NCBI GenBank assembly: GCA_963789265.1 | Contig: CAWBKB010000001.1 | Coordinates: 896,001 to 960,000 of the forward strand | Reading direction: 5' to 3' | Length of the DNA stretch: 64,000 bases | DNA from: an uncultured delta proteobacterium | GTDB taxonomy: Bacteria; Desulfobacterota; Desulfomonilia; Desulfomonilales; Desulfomonilaceae | In this document: one piece after another, positions 26,489-45,324 of the stretch | Position numbering within the stretch: the stretch's first letter is position 1 | Layout: every line of letters starts with the position of its first letter | The notes under the pieces: model-generated | The model's database searches: none | What the model was told of the DNA's origin: nothing | Seen by the model: the letters and a program-made list of their open reading frames with translations, nothing else | Made by a program: the position numbers and the translations under genes

Positions 26489-27862
26489 ATGCTCCATGAC
26501 GCTTTTATAAGCCACGCATCCGAAGATAAGGATGCGTTCGTCCGCCCCCTGGCGAACGCATTGCGTGCCCAAAATGTTGCGGTGTGGTTTGACGAATTTG
26601 AGCTAAAGGTTGGTAGCTCCCTTCGCCGATCCATAGATTTGGGTCTATCGAGATCCCGATTTGGTATTCTGATTCTAAGCAAGGCATTCTTCGGAAGACG
26701 TTGGCCAGAATGGGAACTGGACGGCTTGGTGCAGCGTCAGATGTCGGCATCTGAACCAGTCCTTCTTCCGATCTGGCTGGATGTGACCTACGAAGATGTT
26801 CTAGGGTTTTCGCCTTCCTTGGCCGATAAGTATGCCTTGCGTGCAGAACAGGGACTTGATCGAATCGTACCTCAACTGCTGGAAGTGATAAAACCTCAGG
26901 GATCTTCTCTCGTTGTGGCTCGAGACCGTCTGGTTGAACTGGGCTATGATCCGCCTGTGGTCACGGATGACTGGTGGCACAATGCTATAGAGAAATGCGC
27001 TTCCCATCCTATGGATGAACACTGGGGGTTCCCGTTACCATCCGGAGGTCAAACCGCACAAGAAAGAGGAGAAAGAATAGCCTGGGCTGCTTTACAGTTG
27101 CATTGGCAGAAGAATTCCGCGTTTGAGAGGATGACGCAGATAACACGCCCCGGCGAGGTACACGATTTTATTGGGCGTATGCCAGGCTTAGCTGAAGCCT
27201 GCTTCGAGTACCCCGACTATTTAGCCTCCTATGTTCCTCAGCTCACACTGCCTGGATTTGGTGGTATCTTTGAAGAAGTATTCAATAGCTGGCTTCATCA
27301 TTCCCGAATGGTGCAGGAGAAGGAAAGACAGAGCGGTTCCTCGACGGGAAGAGCTCTTACCGTGGACGGTCATGTCCCTCTTTGCGATCTTCCTATAGCC
27401 CTTCACGACCCGTCTCTTGGGAATTACCAACCGGACGTACTCGCCTGTCTTTTTGTTCAAGGCGAACTTATGGGTCCACCGGTGAAGGTCTACGATTACA
27501 TTGACTATGCCTTGTGGCTCTTGTCGCATGCCAGCAAGTGGCTGCCTGCAGGCGTCAGGGGTTTCCTTCTAACGGGAATGAAAGAATGGGCAGTATGGCC
27601 CTGGTCAGGGTACGAAAATGACTCTGACTTTCCACGCAACAATTCTACGGGTAGTCTGCAGAACGATTTGATGCGAAGCAAGGGCTACAGTACTTTCAAA
27701 CTCAGTAAGAAAGGGCGTCGAGACTTAAACAATCGGGTTGAGCACTCTATCAATATACTCCAATTACCGGAGGAGGTTTCTGTGCTCAGTGAGCTATTCC
27801 TTACCAACGGTTTTGTACAGGCTTGGTTCAGACGCCGGGGAAGGCAAAAAAGGAGCACCTGA
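26489..27862 (+). CDS. TIR-domain protein with uncharacterised C-terminal region
   Basis: DAFISHASEDK...VWFDEF...SIDLGL...WPEWELDGL in the first ~135 aa. Confidence 0.85.
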   Translation: MLHDAFISHASEDKDAFVRPLANALRAQNVAVWFDEFELKVGSSLRRSIDLGLSRSRFGILILSKAFFGRRWPEWELDGLVQRQMSASEPVLLPIWLDVTYEDVLGFSPSLADKYALRAEQGLDRIVPQLLEVIKPQGSSLVVARDRLVELGYDPPVVTDDWWHNAIEKCASHPMDEHWGFPLPSGGQTAQERGERIAWAALQLHWQKNSAFERMTQITRPGEVHDFIGRMPGLAEACFEYPDYLASYVPQLTLPGFGGIFEEVFNSWLHHSRMVQEKERQSGSSTGRALTVDGHVPLCDLPIALHDPSLGNYQPDVLACLFVQGELMGPPVKVYDYIDYALWLLSHASKWLPAGVRGFLLTGMKEWAVWPWSGYENDSDFPRNNSTGSLQNDLMRSKGYSTFKLSKKGRRDLNNRVEHSINILQLPEEVSVLSELFLTNGFVQAWFRRRGRQKRST

Positions 27863-28534: not shown

Positions 28535-28773
28535 AGAGCTACGAAGCAGTTTACGAAGACGGCAAATTGCGATGGATTCGGGAGCAGCCGGCCTCCAAGA
28601 AAATGAGAGTTATAGTGACGGTTCTAGAGGAAGAAAATGATCTAGAAGCCGCTACAGCCCGAAAAACTTTGTTTGAACGTACCAGAGGGTGCGTCAGCCC
28701 CGGAAAATCCATTGAAGAAATTGATGCCGACATCCGGAAAATGCGGGCCGAATGGGAAAGGGAATGGGATTAA
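28528..28773 (+). CDS. Antitoxin (AF2212/DUF104-like)
   Basis: MLKSYEAVYEDGKL N-terminus; TAATG-coupled to the PIN gene. Confidence 0.7.
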   Translation: MLKSYEAVYEDGKLRWIREQPASKKMRVIVTVLEEENDLEAATARKTLFERTRGCVSPGKSIEEIDADIRKMRAEWEREWD

Positions 28774-29165
28774 TGAACCGGGGATGCGTGTTTGACTCAA
28801 ACATCCTCATTTATCACGTTAACGGCAATCTTGACGCGACAGCCGAACGAGTCGTTTTCGATTTGCTTGAACGACCGGTCTATATCTCAGTGATTTCGAA
28901 GATTGAGGTACTTGGATGGCGCGGACATTCCGATGAGTCAAGTAATATAACTGAGGGCCTGTTGAGAGCCCTGATTGAGATAGGATTGGACGAACCCAAA
29001 GTGCAATCCACCATCAATCTTAGACGCCATTACCCAGTGAAACTGCCGGACGCCATTATTGCCGCGTCGGCCATGTGTCTCGGTCTTCCGCTTGTAACTC
29101 GGAACGTCGAGGATTTTGGAAAAGTGGATGGGCTGGATTTGATTAACCCTTTTAAAGGCGGGTGA
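28773..29165 (+). CDS. vapC: VapC-family PIN-domain toxin
   Basis: FDSNILI, ISVISKIE, KLPDAIIAASA, LVTRNVEDF. Confidence 0.88.
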   Translation: MNRGCVFDSNILIYHVNGNLDATAERVVFDLLERPVYISVISKIEVLGWRGHSDESSNITEGLLRALIEIGLDEPKVQSTINLRRHYPVKLPDAIIAASAMCLGLPLVTRNVEDFGKVDGLDLINPFKGG

Positions 29166-32490: not shown

Positions 32491-34767
32491 CTACAATTCC
32501 ACACCGAGGCGTTCCCAAACCGATTCTCCCTCTTCGATACCCACCGGTTTCAGGTGCCGATAGGTGGTGAACAGAAAATAGAGCAGCGGCAAGACTCCGA
32601 AGATGATGACAATCAGGTCGGGCACAACACGGAAGGTGGTCAGCGTCATAACAATGGGTCTTTCAAAAAACGAAGCATCCTTGGCCACCCACAACGCCTG
32701 AGAGAAGCACGTCCACACCTGGAGCAATCCCACCGGAAACAGGGTCGCTGCCATCATGAGTAACAAGCCGCCGTTGAACCCCCAAAATGACATCTTGAGC
32801 ATGCGATTGTTCCAATGGTCCTTGTCCACCATGCCTCTCCAGGAAAACAACAGCAAGGCTATGGAGAGCATTCCGTACACTCCGAACAAGGCTCCGTGTG
32901 CATGGTTGACTGTTAGATATGTCCCGTGCTCGTAGTAGTTGGCAAGTGGAAGATTGTTCAAGAAGCCAAAGACACCGGCGCCGAGGAAGTTCCAGAACGA
33001 TGAGGCTCCCAGGAAGAACAGAGGCCATTTGTACGGGAATGCCTCTCCTTTTCGACGGACCTCCCTATATTCGATCAGGCCGCGAACCACAAGTCCCAAT
33101 AGCGGGATCGGCTCAAGGGATGAAAATACCGATCCTATTGCAAGCCAGAGGGAAGGTTGGCCGAACCAGAAGAAGTGGTGAGCCGTACCGAGAATCCCAC
33201 CCAAAAAGACGAGAGCAATTGTGAAGTAGGCCACTGTGAGAGCTGCTTTTGCGGTGGCCAATCCCATTGTCACCAGCAGCAAGGCGATTACCGCTATGCC
33301 AAAAAACTCAAAGATGCTTTCAACCCATATATGAACCACAAACCATCGCCAGTAATCGGCGAGGGTTAAATGAGTTCCTCTCCCGTACAGAAGGCCAAAT
33401 CCAAAAAATGCGACAACTAGGACAGCACTGATAACGTACAAAACGATGAGTGCATTGAAATCGTCCTTGTGCCCCAGTTTGAAGTGATGCCTGATAGGGC
33501 GGTACACGATGAAAAGCCATGCAATGAGGCCGATGTAAAGAATGATCTGCCACGCCCGGCCAAGCTCCAGATATTCCCAGCCCTGATGGCCGAACCAGAA
33601 CCACCAATCGCCAAGAAGATGCTTGATTCCCGCAACTTCTCCCAGGAGACTCCCACCAGCTACGATGAGGATCGCGGCAAAAAGTAGCTGAACCAAGGTC
33701 CCTTGACGTCTGGGCTCTATCCCGCCAATCACAGGAGCAATATATATTGCTGAGGCAATCCAGGTGGTTAGTATCCAGAATATAGCCAACTGGAGGTGCC
33801 ACGTCTTGGCCCAATTGTATGGCATCCACTTTGCCACTATCTGGAGGTAAAAGCTCGCCGGATGAACGGTGTAGTGCGCCAGAAGTCCGCCCATGCAGGT
33901 CTGTGCAAGGAATAGAAGGACAACCACGAGAAAGTATTTCGCGGCTTTGTGCTGGCTGGAAGTCAAAGGCATGTCAATCAGCCGGTCGCCCAAGGGAACC
34001 CCTTTGGCCGCTCCGTACCACAGGCCGTAGTAGTGGACAAAGAAAACGAAGATCCCTGCCACTATGAGGAAGGATAGGAGCCCACCAAGCGTCCACAGGT
34101 AGGTTGAAGTGGTAGGGACGTTGCCCACGCTTCGGTCTGCCGGCCAATTGTTGGTGTACGTGTATTTCGTACCAGGTCGATTTGTTGAGGCAACCCACGC
34201 TGTCCAGAAGAAGAAGCGCCCTATTTCAAGCCTCTGCTTCTGTGAGTCGATTGTGTGGGGCAAGAATCCGTACCGTTTTTCCCCGTTCTTGAACGTATCT
34301 TCCCAGTGGCGCTCAACAGCTTTGAGCCCTGAGACCTGAGCATCGGTAAGGGTCAGTGTGTCGCTCGCAGGGTCATAGCGATTCTGTCTGATTTCGTGGA
34401 TGGCTTTGACGCCAACCAGGTCCTTTTGGAGGTCGTCCAACTCGGAATAGGGTTTTCCATAATCTTTTTGGGCAATGGAACCCCTTACTTCTTCGCTGAT
34501 TAAATGCAGGCTGGCAGCCGAGAATTCAGGTCCTCTCTGGGTGCCGTGTCCCCACACCATACCCTGATCCATAAGGCCGTAGCTCTGAAAGACATCTTGC
34601 CCCTCAAGGATGTCCTGTTTGGTGAATAATACCGCGCCGTCCGGTCCCACAACTTTTCCGGGATAGGGGGCGAGTTGGTGAATCGTAGTCAGCCCGCCAA
34701 TGATAAGAATGGTCAGAGTAATAACAAAGCACAAAATAGCGGCCCATTTGAGCCCTCGTAGTGACAT
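32491..34767 (-). CDS. norZ: Quinol-dependent nitric oxide reductase (qNOR)
   Basis: WGHG, YTNNWP, TWHLQ, WFVVHIWVE, GTAHH, SSLEP, HAHGALFGVYG; start ATG 34767 after GAGGAGGA. Confidence 0.92.
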   Translation of the reverse strand: MSLRGLKWAAILCFVITLTILIIGGLTTIHQLAPYPGKVVGPDGAVLFTKQDILEGQDVFQSYGLMDQGMVWGHGTQRGPEFSAASLHLISEEVRGSIAQKDYGKPYSELDDLQKDLVGVKAIHEIRQNRYDPASDTLTLTDAQVSGLKAVERHWEDTFKNGEKRYGFLPHTIDSQKQRLEIGRFFFWTAWVASTNRPGTKYTYTNNWPADRSVGNVPTTSTYLWTLGGLLSFLIVAGIFVFFVHYYGLWYGAAKGVPLGDRLIDMPLTSSQHKAAKYFLVVVLLFLAQTCMGGLLAHYTVHPASFYLQIVAKWMPYNWAKTWHLQLAIFWILTTWIASAIYIAPVIGGIEPRRQGTLVQLLFAAILIVAGGSLLGEVAGIKHLLGDWWFWFGHQGWEYLELGRAWQIILYIGLIAWLFIVYRPIRHHFKLGHKDDFNALIVLYVISAVLVVAFFGFGLLYGRGTHLTLADYWRWFVVHIWVESIFEFFGIAVIALLLVTMGLATAKAALTVAYFTIALVFLGGILGTAHHFFWFGQPSLWLAIGSVFSSLEPIPLLGLVVRGLIEYREVRRKGEAFPYKWPLFFLGASSFWNFLGAGVFGFLNNLPLANYYEHGTYLTVNHAHGALFGVYGMLSIALLLFSWRGMVDKDHWNNRMLKMSFWGFNGGLLLMMAATLFPVGLLQVWTCFSQALWVAKDASFFERPIVMTLTTFRVVPDLIVIIFGVLPLLYFLFTTYRHLKPVGIEEGESVWERLGVEL

Positions 34768-34893
34768 CGGCATCCTCCTCCATACTGACTCTAATCCCCT
34801 GGCGGGAGCGACCGCCGGATACGTCCCGCGGACCGGAAATGCGACCGAAGCCACTGTCATGCAAGCGGTCGAGCCTTCACTTTTGACAGGTGA

Positions 34894-36576
34894 TCATTTT
34901 TCCTCGTTCTTAGCGGCCTTGACCTGGTCCATCCTCCGTAGTTCTTTGCGGAGGATCTTTCCTACCGCGCTCTTTGGCAGCTCTTTAACGAATTCCACGT
35001 ATTTGGGAACCTTGTACTTGACCAGATTTTCCTTGCAATAGTCGATAATTTCAATTGGTGTGGCCGTTTCCCCTTCCTTAAGAACAATGTATGCCTTGAT
35101 GCGCTCACCGGAATAAGCGTCGGGAACGCCTATGGCACAGGCTTCCAGGACCTTTGGATGAGAGAACAGCACCTCGTCCACATCCCTCGGATAGATATTG
35201 AAGCCTCCCGAGATTATCATATCCTTCTTGCGGTCCACGATACTGAAGTAGCCTTCTTCATCCACGATCGCGATGTCTCCCGTCAGGAGCCAGCCGTCTC
35301 TCAGGGTTATTGCCGTCTCGTCCGGGCGATTTATATACCCTTTCATGATCTGCGGACCCTTTAGACAAAGTTCCCCAGCTTCGCCCGAGGTCGTGATTTC
35401 TTTATTGTAATCGTCCACATCCACCAACTTGGCCTCAGTGTTGGATACCGGTAGGCCTATCGTGCCGGGCTTCGTCTTTGCGCCGTACGGATTGATGTGT
35501 GTCACGGGCGAAGTTTCGGTAAGGCCGTAACCTTCGCAAATCTGCGCACCGGTGAGCCTCTCGAAGCTCCTTAAAGTTTCCAGCGGAAGCGGAGCCCCGC
35601 CGGAAAAACACCCTTTGAGAGACTTTAGACTGTACTTCTTGAGCTGGGGGAAGTTGATCATTCCGTTGTACAGCGTAGGAACTGCCGGCATGAACGTGGC
35701 CTTGTACCTGTCTATGGCATCCAAAATCGTCTTGGGTTCCGGCTTGGGGATCAAGACGTCCGCGTATGCTTTATAGATCCCAATGTTCATGGCGGAGGTC
35801 ATTCCGAAGGAATGGAAGAACGGCAGGCAGCCGACCACGATCTCGCCCCCCGGCTCGAAATCTGGAAACCACGCCGCAGATTGCTGAACATTACATGACA
35901 GATTTGCATGGGTCAGCTCGACGCCTTTTGACACACCGGTCGTACCGCCTGTATATAGCAGCACGGCAGTGCTCTCCCATTTCAGCTTCGGGGGATCGGT
36001 AACAGGCGGATACTTCTTGATGAGGTCCATGAATTCGAGCACATCGGTAGCCGCGGGGGTCTTGAGGTGCATACTTTTTTTGACAAATGGAAAGAGTTGC
36101 TTGAGAGGAAAGGGCAGGAAATCTCGGATGTGGCAAGAAATTATCTTCTTTATCCCAGTCTTCTGCCTCAAATTGATCATCCGCGGGAGCAGGACATCCA
36201 GGCAAACCAGAAACGTAGACCCAGAATCATTATATTGGTGCTCCAGCTCCCGGTCCGTGTAAAGAGGGTTGTTCATCGCGACGACCGCGCCCGCGCGAAA
36301 CGTTCCGTAAATCGCGACCACCGTCTGGACGAGATTAGGGAGGAGTAGGGCCACCTTATCGCCCGGACTCACTCCCAGAGCTATCAGTCCGGACGCAAAT
36401 CTGGACACCATGTCGTCCAGTTGTCGGAAAGTCACGGTAGTCCCCTCGAACAGAAGCCCCGGGTTGTCGGGAAAACTCTGGGCTGTTCGCGCGAGTGCTT
36501 CCGACAGCGTTATTTTCTCGAAGTCGATCTCGGCAGGAACGTCATGGTGGTAGTATTTCAGCCACGTCTTTTCCAT
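34894..36576 (-). CDS. fadD: Long-chain fatty acid-CoA ligase
   Basis: YTGGTTGVSKG, EGYGLTE, LTGD, DRKKDMII, KSAVGK. Confidence 0.9.
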   Translation of the reverse strand: MEKTWLKYYHHDVPAEIDFEKITLSEALARTAQSFPDNPGLLFEGTTVTFRQLDDMVSRFASGLIALGVSPGDKVALLLPNLVQTVVAIYGTFRAGAVVAMNNPLYTDRELEHQYNDSGSTFLVCLDVLLPRMINLRQKTGIKKIISCHIRDFLPFPLKQLFPFVKKSMHLKTPAATDVLEFMDLIKKYPPVTDPPKLKWESTAVLLYTGGTTGVSKGVELTHANLSCNVQQSAAWFPDFEPGGEIVVGCLPFFHSFGMTSAMNIGIYKAYADVLIPKPEPKTILDAIDRYKATFMPAVPTLYNGMINFPQLKKYSLKSLKGCFSGGAPLPLETLRSFERLTGAQICEGYGLTETSPVTHINPYGAKTKPGTIGLPVSNTEAKLVDVDDYNKEITTSGEAGELCLKGPQIMKGYINRPDETAITLRDGWLLTGDIAIVDEEGYFSIVDRKKDMIISGGFNIYPRDVDEVLFSHPKVLEACAIGVPDAYSGERIKAYIVLKEGETATPIEIIDYCKENLVKYKVPKYVEFVKELPKSAVGKILRKELRRMDQVKAAKNEEK

Positions 36577-36831
36577 TGAAATGCTCCTCTTTAGCTCTGT
36601 ACGAGCGAAATAATAGGTCTAATTGACACAGAATGAAGAACTCCTTAACAGTATTCTTACACATACGCATGTAGATCCCCAAATAAAAAAATGGGTCCTC
36701 GAAGGTGCTCCAAGACGAATATCTTGCGAGACGGCATCGTGGTCGGGTACTCAAGGTTCCCCTTCATCGGATGCAAAAAAACGCATTTGTGGAAGCGTCC
36801 AGGGTTTGGTAGCGTCTTCTTGGAGCAAGGG

Positions 36832-37398
36832 ATGATATACTCCGGCATTATGTTCAAAATAATTCTTCGCGAAATCTTGGTCCTGCTGCTGTCCTTGGCC
36901 GTGTTTCCCGCGGCTGTGGTCCTGCTCCTGATTTTCAGTGATTCCCTTGACATCGGGCTATCCTTCTTAGCGCAGGAATACGGACTTTTGGGGGGGATGG
37001 GCCCGGGCGGCAGCGTGGTTGCCCTATGGGTCAAATGGTTCGCCCCATATCTGGTGTTGCAAGCCATCCGTGGATTTCTTTGGTCACAACGCAGCCTCAA
37101 CGGTAGAAGATGGGCGAATCTCTATTTCTCAGCGTTGACTGCATCCGTGGCAGCATGGTCGGTGTGGAGGATGTGGGACCTGTTCTATTTCATGTACGCT
37201 CTGGGAGATATGCCCGCCCAACTGATGCAATTCTTTCAAATGGAAGCCCGTGATATTCTGACATTCATCGGGTGTGTCATTCTCGTTGTATATTGCTTCA
37301 GCATCTTTCTCCACCCGGAAAGAAAGCGAAACCGTTCGATTGGCCAACCTAAAGATGCGCCTGGCAATTTCCGATCAGAGCGTGACCGTGGAAGTTGA
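36832..37398 (+). CDS. Hypothetical membrane protein (~4 TM)
   Basis: Hydrophobic segments; GGAG before ATG 36832. Confidence 0.6.
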   Translation: MIYSGIMFKIILREILVLLLSLAVFPAAVVLLLIFSDSLDIGLSFLAQEYGLLGGMGPGGSVVALWVKWFAPYLVLQAIRGFLWSQRSLNGRRWANLYFSALTASVAAWSVWRMWDLFYFMYALGDMPAQLMQFFQMEARDILTFIGCVILVVYCFSIFLHPERKRNRSIGQPKDAPGNFRSERDRGS

Positions 37399-37478: not shown

Positions 37479-38114
37479 CTAGGCCGGCTTTACGAAATTT
37501 ATCGTAAAGGCCCACCAGTTGCCGTACTGGTGTTTCAGATGAAAACCGGCGGCTTCAGCTAAAGCGCGGACAGTATCGCGTGCCTGATAGTGAGGGTCAG
37601 GGAATATCTCTGTGATGGACAGCACTCCCCCCGGTTTCAGCAAGTCGTAAATTTCACGAAGCGCGGCTTCGCGGTCGGGAATCTCGCCCAGGACTGTCAC
37701 CAACAAAGCCAGGTCGAAGGCGTTGGATTCCACATTCCCCTGACCGATGCCACCCAAGACGGTACGGATGTTGGTTAGGCCGGATGCCGCGATTCGAGTT
37801 CCCAGTTTTCGCAGCATCGCCTCCTGAACGTCGAGGGCTACGACTTCACCTTCCGGCCCCAATTGACGGGCCACGGGAATAGTCAGGCGGCCGGGCCCAC
37901 ATCCTGCATCGAGCACACGCATGCCCGGCTTCAGATCAAGCAATTCCAGTTGTGGGTGACTGGTCCTCACGCCTCCGGTGATCGGGTTTTCCAGCAGCCA
38001 AGCCAACCATACAGGGCAAGGCAAAAAACGGCGCCTTGACGCGTAACGCCACCACAGGCTGATTCCCACCAGACCGATGATTACGACTGCAACGATGAGC
38101 GCTGCGATTTTCAT
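37479..38114 (-). CDS. Class I SAM-dependent methyltransferase with N-terminal anchor
   Basis: VLDAGCGPG, LKPGG. Confidence 0.85.
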   Translation of the reverse strand: MKIAALIVAVVIIGLVGISLWWRYASRRRFLPCPVWLAWLLENPITGGVRTSHPQLELLDLKPGMRVLDAGCGPGRLTIPVARQLGPEGEVVALDVQEAMLRKLGTRIAASGLTNIRTVLGGIGQGNVESNAFDLALLVTVLGEIPDREAALREIYDLLKPGGVLSITEIFPDPHYQARDTVRALAEAAGFHLKHQYGNWWAFTINFVKPA

Positions 38115-38155: not shown

Positions 38156-40288
38156 TCAAAGAATCTTCATCTTTTCGTTAATCAATTTAAGCATGGCAAC
38201 GTTATCGGTATGGCCTGTCTGCTTCGCCACTATTTTGCCGCGGATGGGCCGTCCCAACAGATAAAAATCTCCTATGATATCTAATATCTTATGGCGAACG
38301 AACTCATCAGGAAATCTGAGGGGTGGGTTCACGACTTTCTCCTCGTCCAGAAGCACCACGTTGGAAAGCCTTCCCCCACTGGCAAGCCCCATCTCATCCA
38401 TCATGCGCATATCCTTCACAAATCCGAAGGTCCGAGCGGGCGCGATCTCACGTTTGAAGTCCTCCGAGCCGACGCAGCGGTAAACCATGCTCATCTTGCC
38501 TATAGGTTTAGGATAATCGAGGATATATTCAATCTCGAAGAAATCTGAAGGCTCAACCCTAATGCTCTTGGTGTTACCCGGCGGCCGAGGGAGTTCCATG
38601 GGCTCGCCGATGACGATCTCCTCAACTGTCTCGTCCTGGGTGATGATTTCCGCGCTCTCCACTAGATTACAGAACTCGAGGGCCGAACCATCCATGATCG
38701 GTACTTCACCGGATATCTTCACGAGCACGTTTGTCAGGCCGTAGATATGAAAAACGGCCATAAGGTGCTCAATGGTGCGGGCGGCTAAGCCGTCACGACG
38801 CAGACACGTCGATAGTTCAGTTGACTCCACATTGCTCAGAACAGCCGGCAAGGTCCCGCCCGAGTTGATATGTCCGAACAAAATACCGCTAAAAGGAGGC
38901 AGCGGAGAAATGGTCAGACCGGTCTTAACTCCGGAGTGGAGCCCTTGGCCGTACTTAACCACCCGGCCTCTGAGCGTCTTTTGTTGATGGAACGGGCTGA
39001 GCCCGGGAGTCAACTTCGAGCGTGGCCGGCGGGTCGTTCCGATCAAAGGAGCGCGGTCCGGAATCGACTGTTCCGCGGACACTTGGTCAGAGGTACCTAA
39101 TGAAGTGGGAGAATGCGTGGAATCCCGAGAAGTTTCCCGTTCCCCGGGAATGAGCAGGTCGCCGGCGGTGATTCGAGGCCCGGGCGCAGTCATTACCACG
39201 TGCTCAATGAGGATCTTCAGTTCCTTCACATTCCCCGGCCACGAATACGAAAGAAGGCGCTCCATTGCGTCGTCATCCGTGCCGTTGATGTTTCTATCGA
39301 ACTCTTCAATCGCTTCCTTGAGAAAGTGATTTACAAACAAGGGGATGTCTTCGGCGCGTTCGCTAAGTGTGGGGAGTCTGATGATCCGCTGGGCAAGTCT
39401 GTCCGCGAGATCAGGCGGGAAATCGTCATCCCTAACAAGAGTTTCAGCATCTATCGTGGAGGTCGAAATTATCCGAAATCGAGAAGCTCCTCGGGAGCCG
39501 GCCCAGGTGTCCGGCCCGAAGTGATCCCGAAGAATTTTGTCCAGAGGCTCCCTCAGACGCTTGTCGAGGCGGTCTATTCTCACGAGGAGCAGCGTTCCGC
39601 GCGCCGCTTGCAGCATCTTTCCGGTTCTCTGATTGTTAGAGCCGTTGCTTTTGCCAATAAGTATATCCCGGATATTGTCGGGGCCAAGATCGGGGCAGCG
39701 AACCTTGACGAGGCTGTGCCGGTCCTTGCCTTCCAAATAATGAATGGTCCTTGCCAAGAACTCCTTGCCCGTACCCTTGTCACCCGTTAGCCATACGGCC
39801 CCGCCTTCCGTAGCAGCGTTTTCAAGGGCTCGCCTGAGCGCCGCGGCCTTGGAAGAGGCACCTATCAGTTGACTGGGACTCGACCCATTCCCCTGTCCCG
39901 AGCGTTTCGCAGACGAGCGGCTCGAAATAGCCGTTTGGACAAGATGGAGCACGTCTTCCAGGTTGAGAGGCTTTTCCAGATAGTCGGTGGCACCAAGCTT
40001 GATTGCTTTTACAGCAGTTTCGATGGTGCCATGGCCGCTCATCATGATGACCGAGCACTTTGGGTCGATCCTCTTGATGGCCTTCAAGGTCTGCATACCG
40101 TCGATTCCCGGGATCCATATATCGAGGAAGACCACATCAGGGGAGTCGCTTTGAACGACGTGCAGTGCTTCCTGGCCGTCGCGAACCTTGATCAGCTCAT
40201 GCCCCTCATCGGCAAGGATCGCTCCTAGCGAATCAAGGATCTCCTGCTGGTCGTCAACTATGAGTACTCTTCCCTTATTCATAATCAT
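38156..40288 (-). CDS. lpxC: Fusion: receiver domain + degenerate sigma54-type AAA+ domain + LpxC (UDP-3-O-acyl-GlcNAc deacetylase)
   Basis: REC (VLIVDD, FLDIW, MMSGHG, LEKP); AAA+ remnants (GDKGTGKE, WPGNVKEL); LpxC (QKTL...GQGLHSG, TIEHLMA, IAPARTFG, RHKILDIIGD, GH). Confidence 0.9.
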   Translation of the reverse strand: MIMNKGRVLIVDDQQEILDSLGAILADEGHELIKVRDGQEALHVVQSDSPDVVFLDIWIPGIDGMQTLKAIKRIDPKCSVIMMSGHGTIETAVKAIKLGATDYLEKPLNLEDVLHLVQTAISSRSSAKRSGQGNGSSPSQLIGASSKAAALRRALENAATEGGAVWLTGDKGTGKEFLARTIHYLEGKDRHSLVKVRCPDLGPDNIRDILIGKSNGSNNQRTGKMLQAARGTLLLVRIDRLDKRLREPLDKILRDHFGPDTWAGSRGASRFRIISTSTIDAETLVRDDDFPPDLADRLAQRIIRLPTLSERAEDIPLFVNHFLKEAIEEFDRNINGTDDDAMERLLSYSWPGNVKELKILIEHVVMTAPGPRITAGDLLIPGERETSRDSTHSPTSLGTSDQVSAEQSIPDRAPLIGTTRRPRSKLTPGLSPFHQQKTLRGRVVKYGQGLHSGVKTGLTISPLPPFSGILFGHINSGGTLPAVLSNVESTELSTCLRRDGLAARTIEHLMAVFHIYGLTNVLVKISGEVPIMDGSALEFCNLVESAEIITQDETVEEIVIGEPMELPRPPGNTKSIRVEPSDFFEIEYILDYPKPIGKMSMVYRCVGSEDFKREIAPARTFGFVKDMRMMDEMGLASGGRLSNVVLLDEEKVVNPPLRFPDEFVRHKILDIIGDFYLLGRPIRGKIVAKQTGHTDNVAMLKLINEKMKIL

Positions 40289-42252: not shown

Positions 42253-45200
42253 ATGCCCAACTTGGATCTGAAAACTACCAACAAAGCCATCAAGGACTAC
42301 TACTCCGGCCTTGCTGAATTCGACAAGCACGGCGTCAAACATGAGATGGCTGTGCGGAGTGCGTTCCAGAGATTATTGGAGCACTGCAGCAGAAAAGTCG
42401 GATGGACGTTCGTGGGAGAATACAAATACCATCGTAAAGACCGTCGTCCAGTAAGCATCGACGGCGGCATGGTAGATGCTTTCACCGTTCCGCAAGGCTT
42501 CTGGGAAGCCAAAGACTCGCAAGACGACCTTGGCAAGGAGGTACAAAATAAATTCTCAATCGGGTATCCGCAAGACAACATCATTTTTCAAGAACCCAGG
42601 AGGGCCATTCTGTGGCAGGGCGGCCGCGAGATTTGCGATCTGGACATTACAAGAGCCGACGCGCTGGTCTACGTAGTTCAAGAGCTGTTCACATACAGGG
42701 ACCAGACGCAAAGTGATTGGGAACAAGCTGTTGCGGATTTCAAACCTCATATTCCAGACGTCGCAAGAAAGGTCGTTGAACTCATCGAAATAGAGCGCAA
42801 GGAAAACCGGGGTTTCATCAAGGCATTCGATACCTTTGCGACCGTTTGCAGGTCCTCTGTGAACCCCAATCTCTCGGATTCCGCGGTTGAAGAAATGCTG
42901 GTCCAACACTTGCTCACAGAGCGGATCTTCCGCAAGGTATTTCACAACTCTGATTTTACCGGCAGGAACATCATTGCCCATGAGATCGAACGAGTGATTC
43001 AATCGCTCACTTCGAGAAAATTCAGCAGGGAGGAGTTTCTCAAGCCGCTGGATCGCTTCTACGTTGCATTGGAGCGCAGAGCTGAATCCTTGGATGATTA
43101 TGCCCAGCAGCAGACGTTCTTAAACACGGTTTATGAAAAATTCTTTCAAGGGTTCGCGATCAAGCAGGCGGATACCCACGGGATCGTTTACACACCGCAG
43201 CCGATTGTTAATTTTATGGTCCGGTCCGTGGAAGAGATCCTGAAGCAGGAGTTCGGCAAGAGCCTCAGCGATGAGGGCGTCCACATAATTGATCCTTTTG
43301 TGGGAACCGGCAACTTTATTACACGCATCATGCGGGAGATCAAAAAGACTGCACTGCCTCACAAGTATGCAAATGAACTGCACTGCAACGAGGTCATGCT
43401 GCTCCCCTATTACATAGCGTCCATGAACATCGAACATGAGTATTATGAGCGAACCGGTGAATACAAACCGTTTGAGGGCATTTGCCTCGTGGACACGTTC
43501 GAGCTTGCCGAAGACAAGCAGTTGTCGCTCATGTTCACGCAGGAAAACACTGAGCGGGTGGAGAAGCTTAGAAAGACCAAGCTGTTCGTGATCATAGGAA
43601 ATCCGCCGTACAACGCCTGGCAGGTGAATGAAAACGACAACAACAAGAATCGCAAATACAAGACGATGGATAAACGTGTGGCTGACACATACTCCAGGGA
43701 TGGCACAGCTACCAACAAGAGCGCTCTATCAGATCCGTATGTAAAGGCCCTTCGGTGGGCCTCGGATAAGATTCTGGAAAATGGTGAGGGTGTGGTCGCT
43801 TTTGTTTCCAATGACAGTTTTGTGGACACTCTGGCGTTTGATGGGATGCGGAGACATTTAGCGGCCGACTTCGATCGCATCTATGTACTTGACCTTGGCG
43901 GCAACGTCCGAAAGAACCCGAAGATTTCGGGGACAACCCACAATGTGTTCGGCATACAAGTCGGGGTCAGCATCAATCTTCTGGTCAAACTACGGGACCC
44001 CAACAGCAGAGGACGTATCTTCTATTTCCGCATGGACGAAAATTGGAGAAAGGACGCTAAATTTGCCCTTCTTGATCAGAGCGAGACATGTTCAGGTGTG
44101 AAGTGGCAGGAGATAGTCCCGAAGGGCAAGTACACGTGGCTGACCGAAGGATTGAGAAATGACTTTGAAACCTTCTTGCCTCTTGGAACAAAGAAAGCGA
44201 AAGCAGGTACAGGAGAGGCCATATTCGGCCTTTTCAGTTCCGGATTGCAGACCAATCGCGACACGTGGGCCTACAACTTTGATACTAAAGCACTTGAAGC
44301 CAATATGCGGATAACTATCACAGCCTACAACGAACAGCTACTTAAGTGGTCGAATCACCATCCAAAAGGCGATATAGACGACTTCGTCGTGAGCGATGAC
44401 ACGAGAATTAGTTGGAGTAGCAGCCTCAAGAGTTACTTGTTGCAGCTCATTGCCGTTGAATATGATAGTTCCAAGATTCGAGATGGAATCTATAGGCCGT
44501 TTGTGCGCTCAAGCGTCTATTTCGATAGGCATTTCAATCATCGTCGCTACCAACTACCTCGGATTTTCCCAAAACCCGCCGCTGAATCCGAGAACTGTAC
44601 TATATGCCTCACCGACAGGGGATCTGAAAAACCGTTCGTGGCTCTGATGACCAACTATCTGACAGACCTTCATCTTGTTGGAGCTGGTTGCAGCACGCAG
44701 TGCTTCCCATTTTACACGTACGACCAAGATGGCTCCAACCGCCGCGAAAATGTCACCGACTGGGCTGTTGAGCAGTTTTCTGCGGCTCTGGGTTCTGGAG
44801 TGAAAAGGATGAAGATCTTCCACTACATCTACGGCCTTCTCCATTCGCCGGAATACCGAGAAAAATACCAGTCCAACCTCAAAAGAGATCTTCCACGGAT
44901 ACCATTGCCCAAGACCATCGAACAATTCCACGCGTTCGCATCCGCGGGCGAACGCTTGGCGGATCTCCATGTCAATTATGAATCCCAGAAGGAATACCCT
45001 CTTGAGAATATAGAGAATCCTGACAAGCCTCTTAACTGGCGGGTCGAGAAAATGAAGCTCACCAAGGACAAGACGGCCATTGTCTACAATAACTTCCTGA
45101 CGCTTGCCGGCATACCGTCCGAAGCCTTCGAGTACAAATTGGGCAATCGCTCAGCCTTAGAATGGATAATTGACAGATATCAGGTTCGCCGGGACAAGAG

Positions 45201-45324
45201 GAGCGGCATCGTCAACGACCCTAACCGAGCCGACGACCAGCAGTACATCGTGAAGCTGATTGGGAAGATTATTACGGTGAGTCTGGAAACGATGAAGGTC
45301 ATTAATTCTTTGCCAAGCATGTAG
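42253..45324 (+). CDS. Single-chain restriction-modification enzyme: nuclease-like N-terminus, N6-adenine MTase, Type ISP-like C-terminal specificity domain; no helicase
   Basis: IDG...WEAK (PD-(D/E)xK-like); GIVYTP, DPFVGTG, GNPPY; YRPF...YKLGNRSALEWIIDRYQ. Confidence 0.85.
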   Translation: MPNLDLKTTNKAIKDYYSGLAEFDKHGVKHEMAVRSAFQRLLEHCSRKVGWTFVGEYKYHRKDRRPVSIDGGMVDAFTVPQGFWEAKDSQDDLGKEVQNKFSIGYPQDNIIFQEPRRAILWQGGREICDLDITRADALVYVVQELFTYRDQTQSDWEQAVADFKPHIPDVARKVVELIEIERKENRGFIKAFDTFATVCRSSVNPNLSDSAVEEMLVQHLLTERIFRKVFHNSDFTGRNIIAHEIERVIQSLTSRKFSREEFLKPLDRFYVALERRAESLDDYAQQQTFLNTVYEKFFQGFAIKQADTHGIVYTPQPIVNFMVRSVEEILKQEFGKSLSDEGVHIIDPFVGTGNFITRIMREIKKTALPHKYANELHCNEVMLLPYYIASMNIEHEYYERTGEYKPFEGICLVDTFELAEDKQLSLMFTQENTERVEKLRKTKLFVIIGNPPYNAWQVNENDNNKNRKYKTMDKRVADTYSRDGTATNKSALSDPYVKALRWASDKILENGEGVVAFVSNDSFVDTLAFDGMRRHLAADFDRIYVLDLGGNVRKNPKISGTTHNVFGIQVGVSINLLVKLRDPNSRGRIFYFRMDENWRKDAKFALLDQSETCSGVKWQEIVPKGKYTWLTEGLRNDFETFLPLGTKKAKAGTGEAIFGLFSSGLQTNRDTWAYNFDTKALEANMRITITAYNEQLLKWSNHHPKGDIDDFVVSDDTRISWSSSLKSYLLQLIAVEYDSSKIRDGIYRPFVRSSVYFDRHFNHRRYQLPRIFPKPAAESENCTICLTDRGSEKPFVALMTNYLTDLHLVGAGCSTQCFPFYTYDQDGSNRRENVTDWAVEQFSAALGSGVKRMKIFHYIYGLLHSPEYREKYQSNLKRDLPRIPLPKTIEQFHAFASAGERLADLHVNYESQKEYPLENIENPDKPLNWRVEKMKLTKDKTAIVYNNFLTLAGIPSEAFEYKLGNRSALEWIIDRYQVRRDKRSGIVNDPNRADDQQYIVKLIGKIITVSLETMKVINSLPSM

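Follow-up and report, generated by a model that had tools for sequence, protein, structure and literature searches.

How is LpxC, the enzyme of the committed and controlling step in lipid A synthesis and long a target for antibiotics, regulated in a bacterium that encodes it behind a signal receiver in a single polypeptide? The question is raised by an open reading frame (ORF) in a stretch of 64,000 nucleotides from an uncultured member of the Desulfomonilaceae (Desulfobacterota; assembly GCA_963789265.1, contig CAWBKB010000001.1, positions 896,001 to 960,000), hereafter the window, which reads as a phosphoreceiver (REC), a degenerate sigma54-type AAA+ module, a variable linker and a complete LpxC domain. 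From comparative sequence evidence we propose, with a probability of roughly 0.75, that the protein is an NtrX-derived response regulator with LpxC as its output and NtrY as its likely input, which would control LpxC after translation. An NtrX/NtrC-type sigma54 activator would have been fused head to tail onto LpxC, after which the DNA-binding domain would have been lost, while the AAA+ module would have given up ATP hydrolysis and contact with sigma54. In the host genome the likely input would be a lone NtrY-type membrane histidine kinase that lacks an adjacent response regulator of its own, and phosphorylation of D56 would alter LpxC output post-translationally, setting the flux into lipid A. 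Such an arrangement would replace transcriptional lpxC control of the kind exerted by a dedicated kinase/sigma54-regulator pair in Desulfovibrio. We infer both the phosphotransfer from NtrY and any effect on LpxC.

Architecture of the receiver-LpxC protein

Residue conservation was counted in an alignment of 118 full-length relatives (650-760 aa, taken from the 120 best clusters of a search of 5.8 billion proteins), and the ratio of non-synonymous to synonymous substitution rates (dN/dS) was obtained part by part by comparing the fusion with two close relatives. Constraint is stronger on the receiver than on any other part (dN/dS 0.018 and 0.028): all 118 relatives have D56, S84 and K106, and 115 have D12 and D13, the remaining three rows being gaps. 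The best NCBIfam model for the N-terminal part is NtrX (NF051870; 247.9 bits, under the equivalog cut-off of 600), and the closest solved structure for the N-terminal 400 residues is Brucella NtrX (5M7N; 190.8 bits). The motifs that an earlier note on this DNA had listed are all present (the acidic pair at residues 12-13, D56 in FLDIW, K106-P107, LLLVRIDRL, TIEH, HKILD and TGH), with GAFTGA absent. The true start is probably the second ATG (position 40282, giving 708 aa), since relatives begin with MNKGR and the database copy P0002 has 708 aa.

The same note described the AAA+ domain as apparently inactive, lacking GAFTGA, the Walker B acids and a helix-turn-helix (HTH), and this is borne out by the motif tables and by Pfam, in which the Sigma54_activat score is weak for that family and no HTH_8 was reported in the protein down to E = 1. 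All 118 relatives share Walker A (GxxGxGKE) and have, in place of the Walker B acidic pair, V/I/L or a less common residue and then R/G; the arginine-finger positions are unconserved, the sensor II Arg is a Lys throughout (K355, in GNVKELK) and the loop at the GAFTGA site is variable. GAFTGA is likewise missing in the alignment to NtrC4 and NtrC1 and from all 18 long-form fusion representatives, none of which has the canonical Asp-Glu of Walker B (P0122 has Asp-Asp); 17 of the 18 lack the sensor I Asn and 16 keep GxxGxGK. A comparison set of two NtrX proteins and 14 paralogs from the host genome is canonical or nearly so (GAFTGA or a close variant). With dN/dS values of 0.128 and 0.147 for the core and about 0.07 for the lid, the module is predicted to be catalytically dead yet under purifying selection. 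The strictly conserved P-loop suggests that it still binds nucleotide as a structural or sensing ligand, and in this lineage the module probably contributes assembly or nucleotide binding. Beside the lost Walker B, D239 is invariant and is followed by R or K in 118 of 118 relatives.

The enzyme part covers positions 1-266 of the 268 in the Pfam LpxC profile (PF03331) and scores 214.4 bits with the lpxC equivalog model TIGR00325, above its cut-off of 187.25. In an alignment with Pseudomonas aeruginosa LpxC the EH (tiEH), ARTFGF, HKILDxIGD and GH motifs are identical, and across 97 LpxC domains, fused and unfused, E507, H508, T620, H666, K667, D670, D674 and H693 are at least 97% conserved; we take these to be the metal ligands (His, His, Asp), the general-base Glu, the catalytic His, and the Thr and Lys of the active site. 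The dN/dS values are 0.070 and 0.081, and the part is, by its sequence, an intact predicted UDP-3-O-acyl-GlcNAc deacetylase. In the same 97-domain alignment T456, G457, K524, C540, Y592, L646 and T691 are fixed in fused LpxC and different in the unfused ones (the position of K524 is Glu in 78% of the latter). Whether the fusion is the only lpxC, a point left to be checked by the earlier note, can be answered: it is the single LpxC match in the host genome (G000; 6.06 Mb, 95.6% complete), in which LpxB, LpxK and LpxD also have one match each. In the family LpxC is found in 21 of 24 genomes, and in 20 of these 21 as one copy, within the fusion locus. The exception (G019, about 6% contaminated) has an extra stand-alone LpxC besides the fusion, and the three genomes without a match are 73-86% complete.

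The linker is the least constrained segment: S, P, T and R make up 29 of its 54 residues, its mean pairwise identity is 0.16, and with dN/dS of 0.62 and 0.57 it is nearly free to vary. It holds no ATG, and nothing resembling a Shine-Dalgarno sequence precedes its GTG/TTG codons (residues 403, 415 and 426), in agreement with the note's remark that LpxC lacks an obvious separate start. The stretch around 39000-39150, where a stop or indel had been thought worth looking for, is covered by short-read contigs of a soil metagenome (record 4, 38951-39197) with 0 differences and 0 gaps; this sample may be the assembly's own source, so independent support comes from intact homologs. All 120 best clusters of the protein search have the full architecture at 59-88% identity, several of them named Desulfomonilaceae or Desulfomonile tiedjei.

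Distribution and phylogeny of the fused LpxC

The combination of receiver, AAA+ and LpxC, first noticed in this one ORF, proved to be widespread across several phyla. In a search of 1.84 billion cluster representatives, fusions rank first, and the 42 representatives scanned comprise 12 with REC, AAA+, lid and LpxC, 22 with REC and LpxC only, five that are N-terminally truncated, two that carry a Fis-type HTH between lid and LpxC (P0132 and P0133) and one REC-HTH-LpxC (P0135); their source names include Nitrospinota, Candidatus Entotheonellia and 'Deltaproteobacteria'. A scan of species genomes yielded 33 fusion loci, 32 of them single-frame, from Nitrospina/Nitrospinaceae, Desulfomonile, Syntrophobacter(aceae), Desulfocapsaceae, Thermoanaerobaculia, Holophagae, Terriglobia, Binatia and Thermodesulfovibrionia. 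An even sampling of the host phylum (141 genomes) gave 137 with LpxC, 33 of them with a receiver-fused one; the candidates that were fetched were confirmed as fusions in 30 cases out of 30. The fusion is near-universal in the Desulfomonilaceae; Nitrospinota, Acidobacteriota, Binatia, Thermodesulfovibrionia and Entotheonellia have it as well, in many cases lacking AAA+. The idea that REC and AAA+ together form the regulatory module stands for the receiver, which is constant, and not for the AAA+ part, which is present in ten of the phylum-sample fusions and absent in 23.

Two of the proteins recovered deserve mention on their own account. P0138, a 505-aa REC-LpxC, has no Pfam HTH, and its linker (around residues 180-225) reads like the remnant of a Fis-type HTH, which fits a stepwise loss of regulator parts. 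One genome (G071) holds an unfused LpxC (369 bits, 330-aa frame) plus a REC-LpxC fusion (249 bits, 442-aa frame), and is thereby a natural case for what a fused copy adds beside an unfused one.

A tree of the 97 LpxC domains (FastTree, midpoint root; fast rather than thorough, with the unfused set picked by the scan) places all 48 fused domains on one side of a split with a Shimodaira-Hasegawa (SH)-like support of 99, and all 49 unfused ones, including those of a sister family of the same class, on the opposite side. Long and short fusion forms are interleaved, and the LpxC of the window has a median identity of 50.6% to other fused domains and of 38-39% to unfused ones. The topology fits a single origin of the fusion, followed by spread across phyla and repeated loss of AAA+, with the proviso that faster evolution after fusion could draw the fused domains together in the tree.

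The NtrY-type kinase and the sister-family operon

An unfused arrangement is found in the sister family: in all 16 genomes the gene for a stand-alone LpxC immediately precedes that for an NtrY-type kinase (in G025 the two genes overlap by 14 bases), and in 14 a canonical ntrX lies directly downstream of ntrY, the other two being cut by contig ends. These NtrX proteins have GAFTGA or GSFTGA, the Walker B DE and a C-terminal tail that is HTH-like by eye. The kinase architecture is NtrY_N, HAMP, PAS, HisKA and HATPase, the first scoring 34.6 bits in the sister-family kinase. The order lpxC-ntrY-ntrX was seen also in a 'Deltaproteobacteria' metagenome-assembled genome (MAG) and in a Thermoanaerobaculia MAG (L082, L088), while in general an NtrY-like gene is rare near unfused lpxC (only 2 of the 47 unfused loci of the species-genome scan, and 0 of 6 phylum-sample loci with low-scoring unfused lpxC). 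Upstream of the unfused sister-family lpxC no correctly placed sigma54 promoter was found at up to two mismatches, and the totals of such sites are at chance level (7 against 4.8 expected; 3 against 6.0 expected).

The receiver ties the fusion to these regulators. Queried with sister-family NtrX receivers, the fusion receiver is the best of 71 and of 75 matches in the host genome (118 against 102 bits and 105 against 95.5 bits, respectively). In the reverse direction, the best non-fusion match of the fusion in every sister genome is an NtrC-type regulator, which by its coordinates is the ntrY-adjacent NtrX in 14 of the 16. A REC-AAA+ tree, built in the quick version of the search, sets all fusions apart from canonical regulators (SH approximate likelihood ratio test support 100). 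The suggestion that a transcription activator had been repurposed gains support from this receiver match and from the HTH-bearing relatives: descent of the fusion from a complete NtrX/NtrC-type regulator is supported at the sequence level, because P0132 and P0133 retain a Fis-type HTH and because the receiver is a reciprocal best match with the sister NtrX; NtrX descent is favoured also by the best structure match and the best NCBIfam model. The gene order is lpxC-ntrY-ntrX in the unfused state and ntrY-[ntrX::lpxC] in the fused one, and, as a speculation, a tandem duplication of the operon followed by a deletion could turn the former into the latter.

As to the co-occurring NtrY-like kinase that the earlier note had suggested looking for, the host genome has a single orphan ortholog, and in other lineages ntrY stands directly upstream of the fusion. 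The ortholog is unambiguous (632 bits, 44% identity, full length; the next kinase scores 120), and its surroundings recur throughout the 21 family genomes examined (with pth in 21, Zincin_1 in 20 and sua5 in 19), none of which has a response-regulator gene directly beside ntrY. At 12 of 33 species-genome loci and 8 of 30 phylum-sample loci the gene immediately upstream of the fusion, in the same orientation, is NtrY-like. Each of five further carriers that lack an adjacent kinase encodes a single NtrY ortholog at another site (405-704 bits), whose 1.2-1.5 kb flanks contain no receiver gene, and a fused LpxC was never seen together with ntrY followed by a canonical ntrX in the genomes checked. 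Open frames of 1378, 1423 and 1007 aa had hinted at a triple fusion of kinase, receiver and LpxC; this was rejected, the kinase lying in another reading frame.

A separate observation concerns the gene for a Zincin_1 protein (PF06262), which precedes ntrY in 20 of 21 family genomes and in the host overlaps its start by 4 bases. Given this overlap and the kept position, it may be co-transcribed with, and functionally linked to, the kinase. Further along the same locus, secA is split into two overlapping ORFs (the first with SecA_DEAD and PP_bind, the second with P-loop_SecA, SecA_SW and SEC-C), which suggests a frameshift in this assembly and bears on how indels elsewhere in it are judged.

Around the fusion itself (Table 1), the methyltransferase gene was not found at this position in 16 related loci checked; it looks like a recent insertion and does not belong to the conserved system. 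The convergent ORF, whose product appears membrane-like from its hydrophobic N-terminal sequence, is retained at 11 of 16 family loci, where it directly follows the fusion. The TIR and PIN proteins farther off are possibly defence or toxin-antitoxin genes.

Table 1. Coordinates of the fusion, its parts, neighbouring genes in the window and related genes elsewhere (window positions unless a contig is named; residues are those of the 710-aa frame).
Feature	Position	Strand	Remark
Whole ORF (REC, dead AAA+, LpxC)	38156..40288	-	710 aa from first ATG, stop codon included
Receiver (REC), residues 8-117	39938..40267	-	Pfam Response_reg (PF00072) 104.7 bits, cut-off 30.2
Phosphoacceptor D56 (in REC)	40121-40123	-	motif FLDIW
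Sigma54-type AAA+ core, residues 141-300	39389..39868	-	Pfam Sigma54_activat 63 bits; predicted inactive
Walker A, residues 169-176	39761-39784	-	GDKGTGKE; motif tables
Degenerate Walker B region, residues 233-240	39569-39592	-	LLLVRIDRL; motif tables
Surroundings of D239, residues 236-240	39569-39583	-
AAA+ lid, residues 310-378	39155..39361	-	Pfam AAA_lid_14 72.9 bits
Variable linker, residues 381-434	38987..39148	-	54 residues; composition, dN/dS
Complete LpxC domain, residues 436-703	38180..38983	-	Pfam (PF03331) 264.5 bits, cut-off 27
Class I S-adenosylmethionine methyltransferase	37479..38114	-	41 nt downstream of fusion, between fusion and convergent ORF
Convergent small-protein ORF	36691..37398	+	no Pfam or NCBIfam match
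Acyl-CoA synthetase gene	34894-36576		usually next after convergent ORF
NorB-like nitric oxide reductase	32491-34860	-	789 aa, fused cytochrome c-like domain
PIN-domain protein	28752-29165	+
Protein with N-terminal TIR domain	26489-27862	+	457 aa
Type ISP restriction-modification enzyme	42253-45324	+	1023 aa; ISP_coupler, N6_Mtase, Type_ISP_C
ntrY ortholog	G000 C1:2193137-2195335		outside window; flanked by Zincin_1 and sua5, no regulator
Zincin_1 gene	G000 C1:2195332-2196021 (L027:10333-11022)	-
secA, as two overlapping ORFs	G000 C1 ~2200065-2202708 (L027:15066-17709)	-
Two LpxC copies of G071	C33:20147-20956 and C11:39479-40309		locus L158

Proposed control of LpxC by the fused receiver

Several observations weigh against an NtrX-derived, NtrY-driven regulator of LpxC, or at least against parts of that account. 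In the host genome the kinase lies 1.26 Mb from the fusion, so that the two are paired by orthology and by the gene order seen elsewhere, and its NtrY_N match (19.8 bits) is under the Pfam cut-off of 23.2. The margins of the reciprocal best matches are modest (16 and 9.5 bits), and over REC plus AAA+ the sister NtrX matches host paralogs at 396 bits against 214 for the fusion, the decay of AAA+ blurring the orthology signal over that region. The REC-AAA+ tree names no donor, and the LpxC tree argues against a simple local fusion from a sister-type operon in this lineage, because the LpxC of the window groups with the fused LpxC of other phyla and not with that of the sister family. The long and nearly neutral linker argues against rigid allosteric coupling along the chain. 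The sign of the control is a further difficulty. Sigma54 activators turn genes on. Loss of the kinase in Desulfovibrio alaskensis raises lpxC (PMC4045070), so control could run in either direction.

The nearest known system is the Desulfovibrio pair (DVU2931/DVU2934; Dde_3000/Dde_3003), which shares with the present case a kinase and an NtrC-family regulator, and for which lpxC is the only mapped target. In D. vulgaris lpxC is the single target of DVU2934 (PMC3333781), and in D. alaskensis G20 Dde_3003, a predicted sigma54 activator with lpxC as its sole apparent target, receives its signal from the kinase Dde_3000 (PMC4045070); in Syntrophobacter fumaroxidans lpxC is placed directly upstream of the orthologous regulator operon (PMC3333781, PMC4045070), an order that is also that of the sister family here. 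Desulfovibrio differs in that control is transcriptional, with a sigma54 promoter at lpxC and a regulator that binds the DNA upstream, whereas in the fusion the regulator shares one chain with the enzyme, lacks a DNA-binding domain and is predicted to be unable to contact sigma54 or hydrolyse ATP. The alphaproteobacterial NtrY/NtrX system resembles the present case in the architecture of the kinase and in Brucella NtrX, the best structure match, which in the alignment also lacks GAFTGA. NtrYX lowers lpxC transcripts in Rhodobacter sphaeroides and Caulobacter crescentus and affects lipopolysaccharide (LPS) levels (PMC12444477, PMC7240162). NtrX has retained Walker B along with a DNA-binding domain and controls dozens of genes (lpxC being affected indirectly in R. 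sphaeroides), while the fusion has an enzyme in place of the HTH and stays well below the NtrX model cut-off.

How, then, might a receiver act on an enzyme to which it is tethered? In CheB a flexible linker connects receiver and catalytic domain, and the receiver restrains the enzyme as long as it is unphosphorylated. The fusion departs from CheB in that its output is a lipid A metallo-amidase and not a chemotaxis or second-messenger enzyme, a dead AAA+ stands between receiver and enzyme, and the sequence relationship is limited to the receiver. The mechanism that we prefer is CheB-like, although the odds are somewhat against it: the unphosphorylated receiver would dock on and restrain the tethered LpxC, and phosphorylation-driven dimerisation would release or rearrange it, with the dead AAA+ scaffold helping the receiver to restrain LpxC in this lineage. 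Docking and release, or dimerisation, driven by the receiver is favoured over rigid allostery because some forms do without AAA+ and because the linkers, besides being long and variable, evolve almost neutrally. A bolder version, which we regard as doubtful, is that NtrY and receiver-LpxC form an old dedicated circuit of lipid A homeostasis in at least five phyla, the kinase sensing either the condition of the envelope or an intermediate of lipid A/LPS at the inner membrane, and tuning LpxC within seconds, while the dead AAA+ ring of the long forms would be a nucleotide-binding platform that makes an oligomeric on/off state; if true, this would be the functional counterpart of the enterobacterial FtsH/LapB/YejM system. 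The two-component control of lipid A put forward in the earlier note is supported by comparative evidence in its general form, whereas we infer the gating of activity itself.

Phosphorylation might instead set the amount of LpxC, with REC/AAA+ serving as a conditional degron or as an adaptor handle for FtsH, Lon or Clp in one signalling state; control by proteolysis, as in E. coli, would then be preserved but made to depend on a kinase. LpxC proteolysis is known in enterobacteria, and possibly through Lon in some alphaproteobacteria (PMC12444477); the host genome has two FtsH genes, and the long, disordered-looking linker could be an initiation site. No LapB-type adaptor was detected there, the sole match to Zn_ribbon_LapB (PF18073) being RadA; the model, with 28 positions, also matches Gram-positive controls, so that this result carries little weight either way. 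We consider the degradation account unlikely, as the short REC-LpxC forms, with their quite different linkers, would need the same logic. The enterobacterial FtsH/LapB route differs from the fusion in acting through a C-terminal degron and adaptors, with no phosphorylation.

Improbable to a greater degree is a non-signalling N-terminal module, that is, a structural, oligomerising or localising scaffold (a pseudo-receiver) beside a constitutively active LpxC. Pseudo-receivers exist in other systems, the catalytic motifs of AAA+ are lost here and the kinase is not adjacent in the host genome; against this, all phosphorylation residues are invariant, the receiver has the lowest dN/dS in the protein, a cognate-type kinase gene is directly upstream in 20 of 63 fusion loci, and those family genomes in which the kinase ortholog was found retain it as a single strong match.

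In three congeneric genomes the locus occupies two frames (G002, +1 nt at aa 391; G004, -1 nt at aa 36 and +1 nt at aa 412; G006, +1 nt at aa 150), and two of these indels lie in the linker. That the single ORF reflects a misassembly or a decaying gene, the real state being a regulator remnant and lpxC as two genes, is nevertheless scarcely credible: the indels are single-base, differ from genome to genome and fall also inside REC and AAA+, the protein sequence is conserved on either side of them (we read them as probable assembly errors or recent damage), one frame is kept in 32 of 33 and 30 of 30 loci of other lineages, and the best clusters, the contigs and the lack of internal starts (see above) all speak for one gene.

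Response regulators with enzymatic outputs are already known; LpxC as the output is unreported and physiologically central. A receiver-LpxC protein was not described in the literature searched (coverage being thin for subscription journals), which agrees with the earlier note's statement that no characterised example was known, and in a 2025 review of lipid A regulation the words 'fusion' and 'fused' occur 0 times in the main text. The named natural fusion, bifunctional LpxC/FabZ (NF009667), gives a partial match to this protein, yet it joins two lipid-synthesis enzymes at the LpxC C-terminus, whereas here a signalling module sits at the N-terminus. What is new here is the Desulfomonilaceae form with its orphaned kinase, the unfused sister operon, the selection on a dead AAA+, the frequency in the phylum and the single clade of fused LpxC.

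The regulation of LpxC is described in the same review as poorly understood outside a few proteobacteria. The fusion is common, being found in about a quarter of the sampled genomes of the host phylum and in several other phyla. Its natural series, from a whole regulator plus enzyme down to receiver plus enzyme, portrays a transcription factor absorbed by its own target, and offers experimenters a graded set of constructs that includes the homolog P0047 of the cultured species Desulfomonile tiedjei. If the receiver controls the enzyme to which it is fused, these bacteria would have direct, phosphorylation-based control of outer-membrane synthesis.

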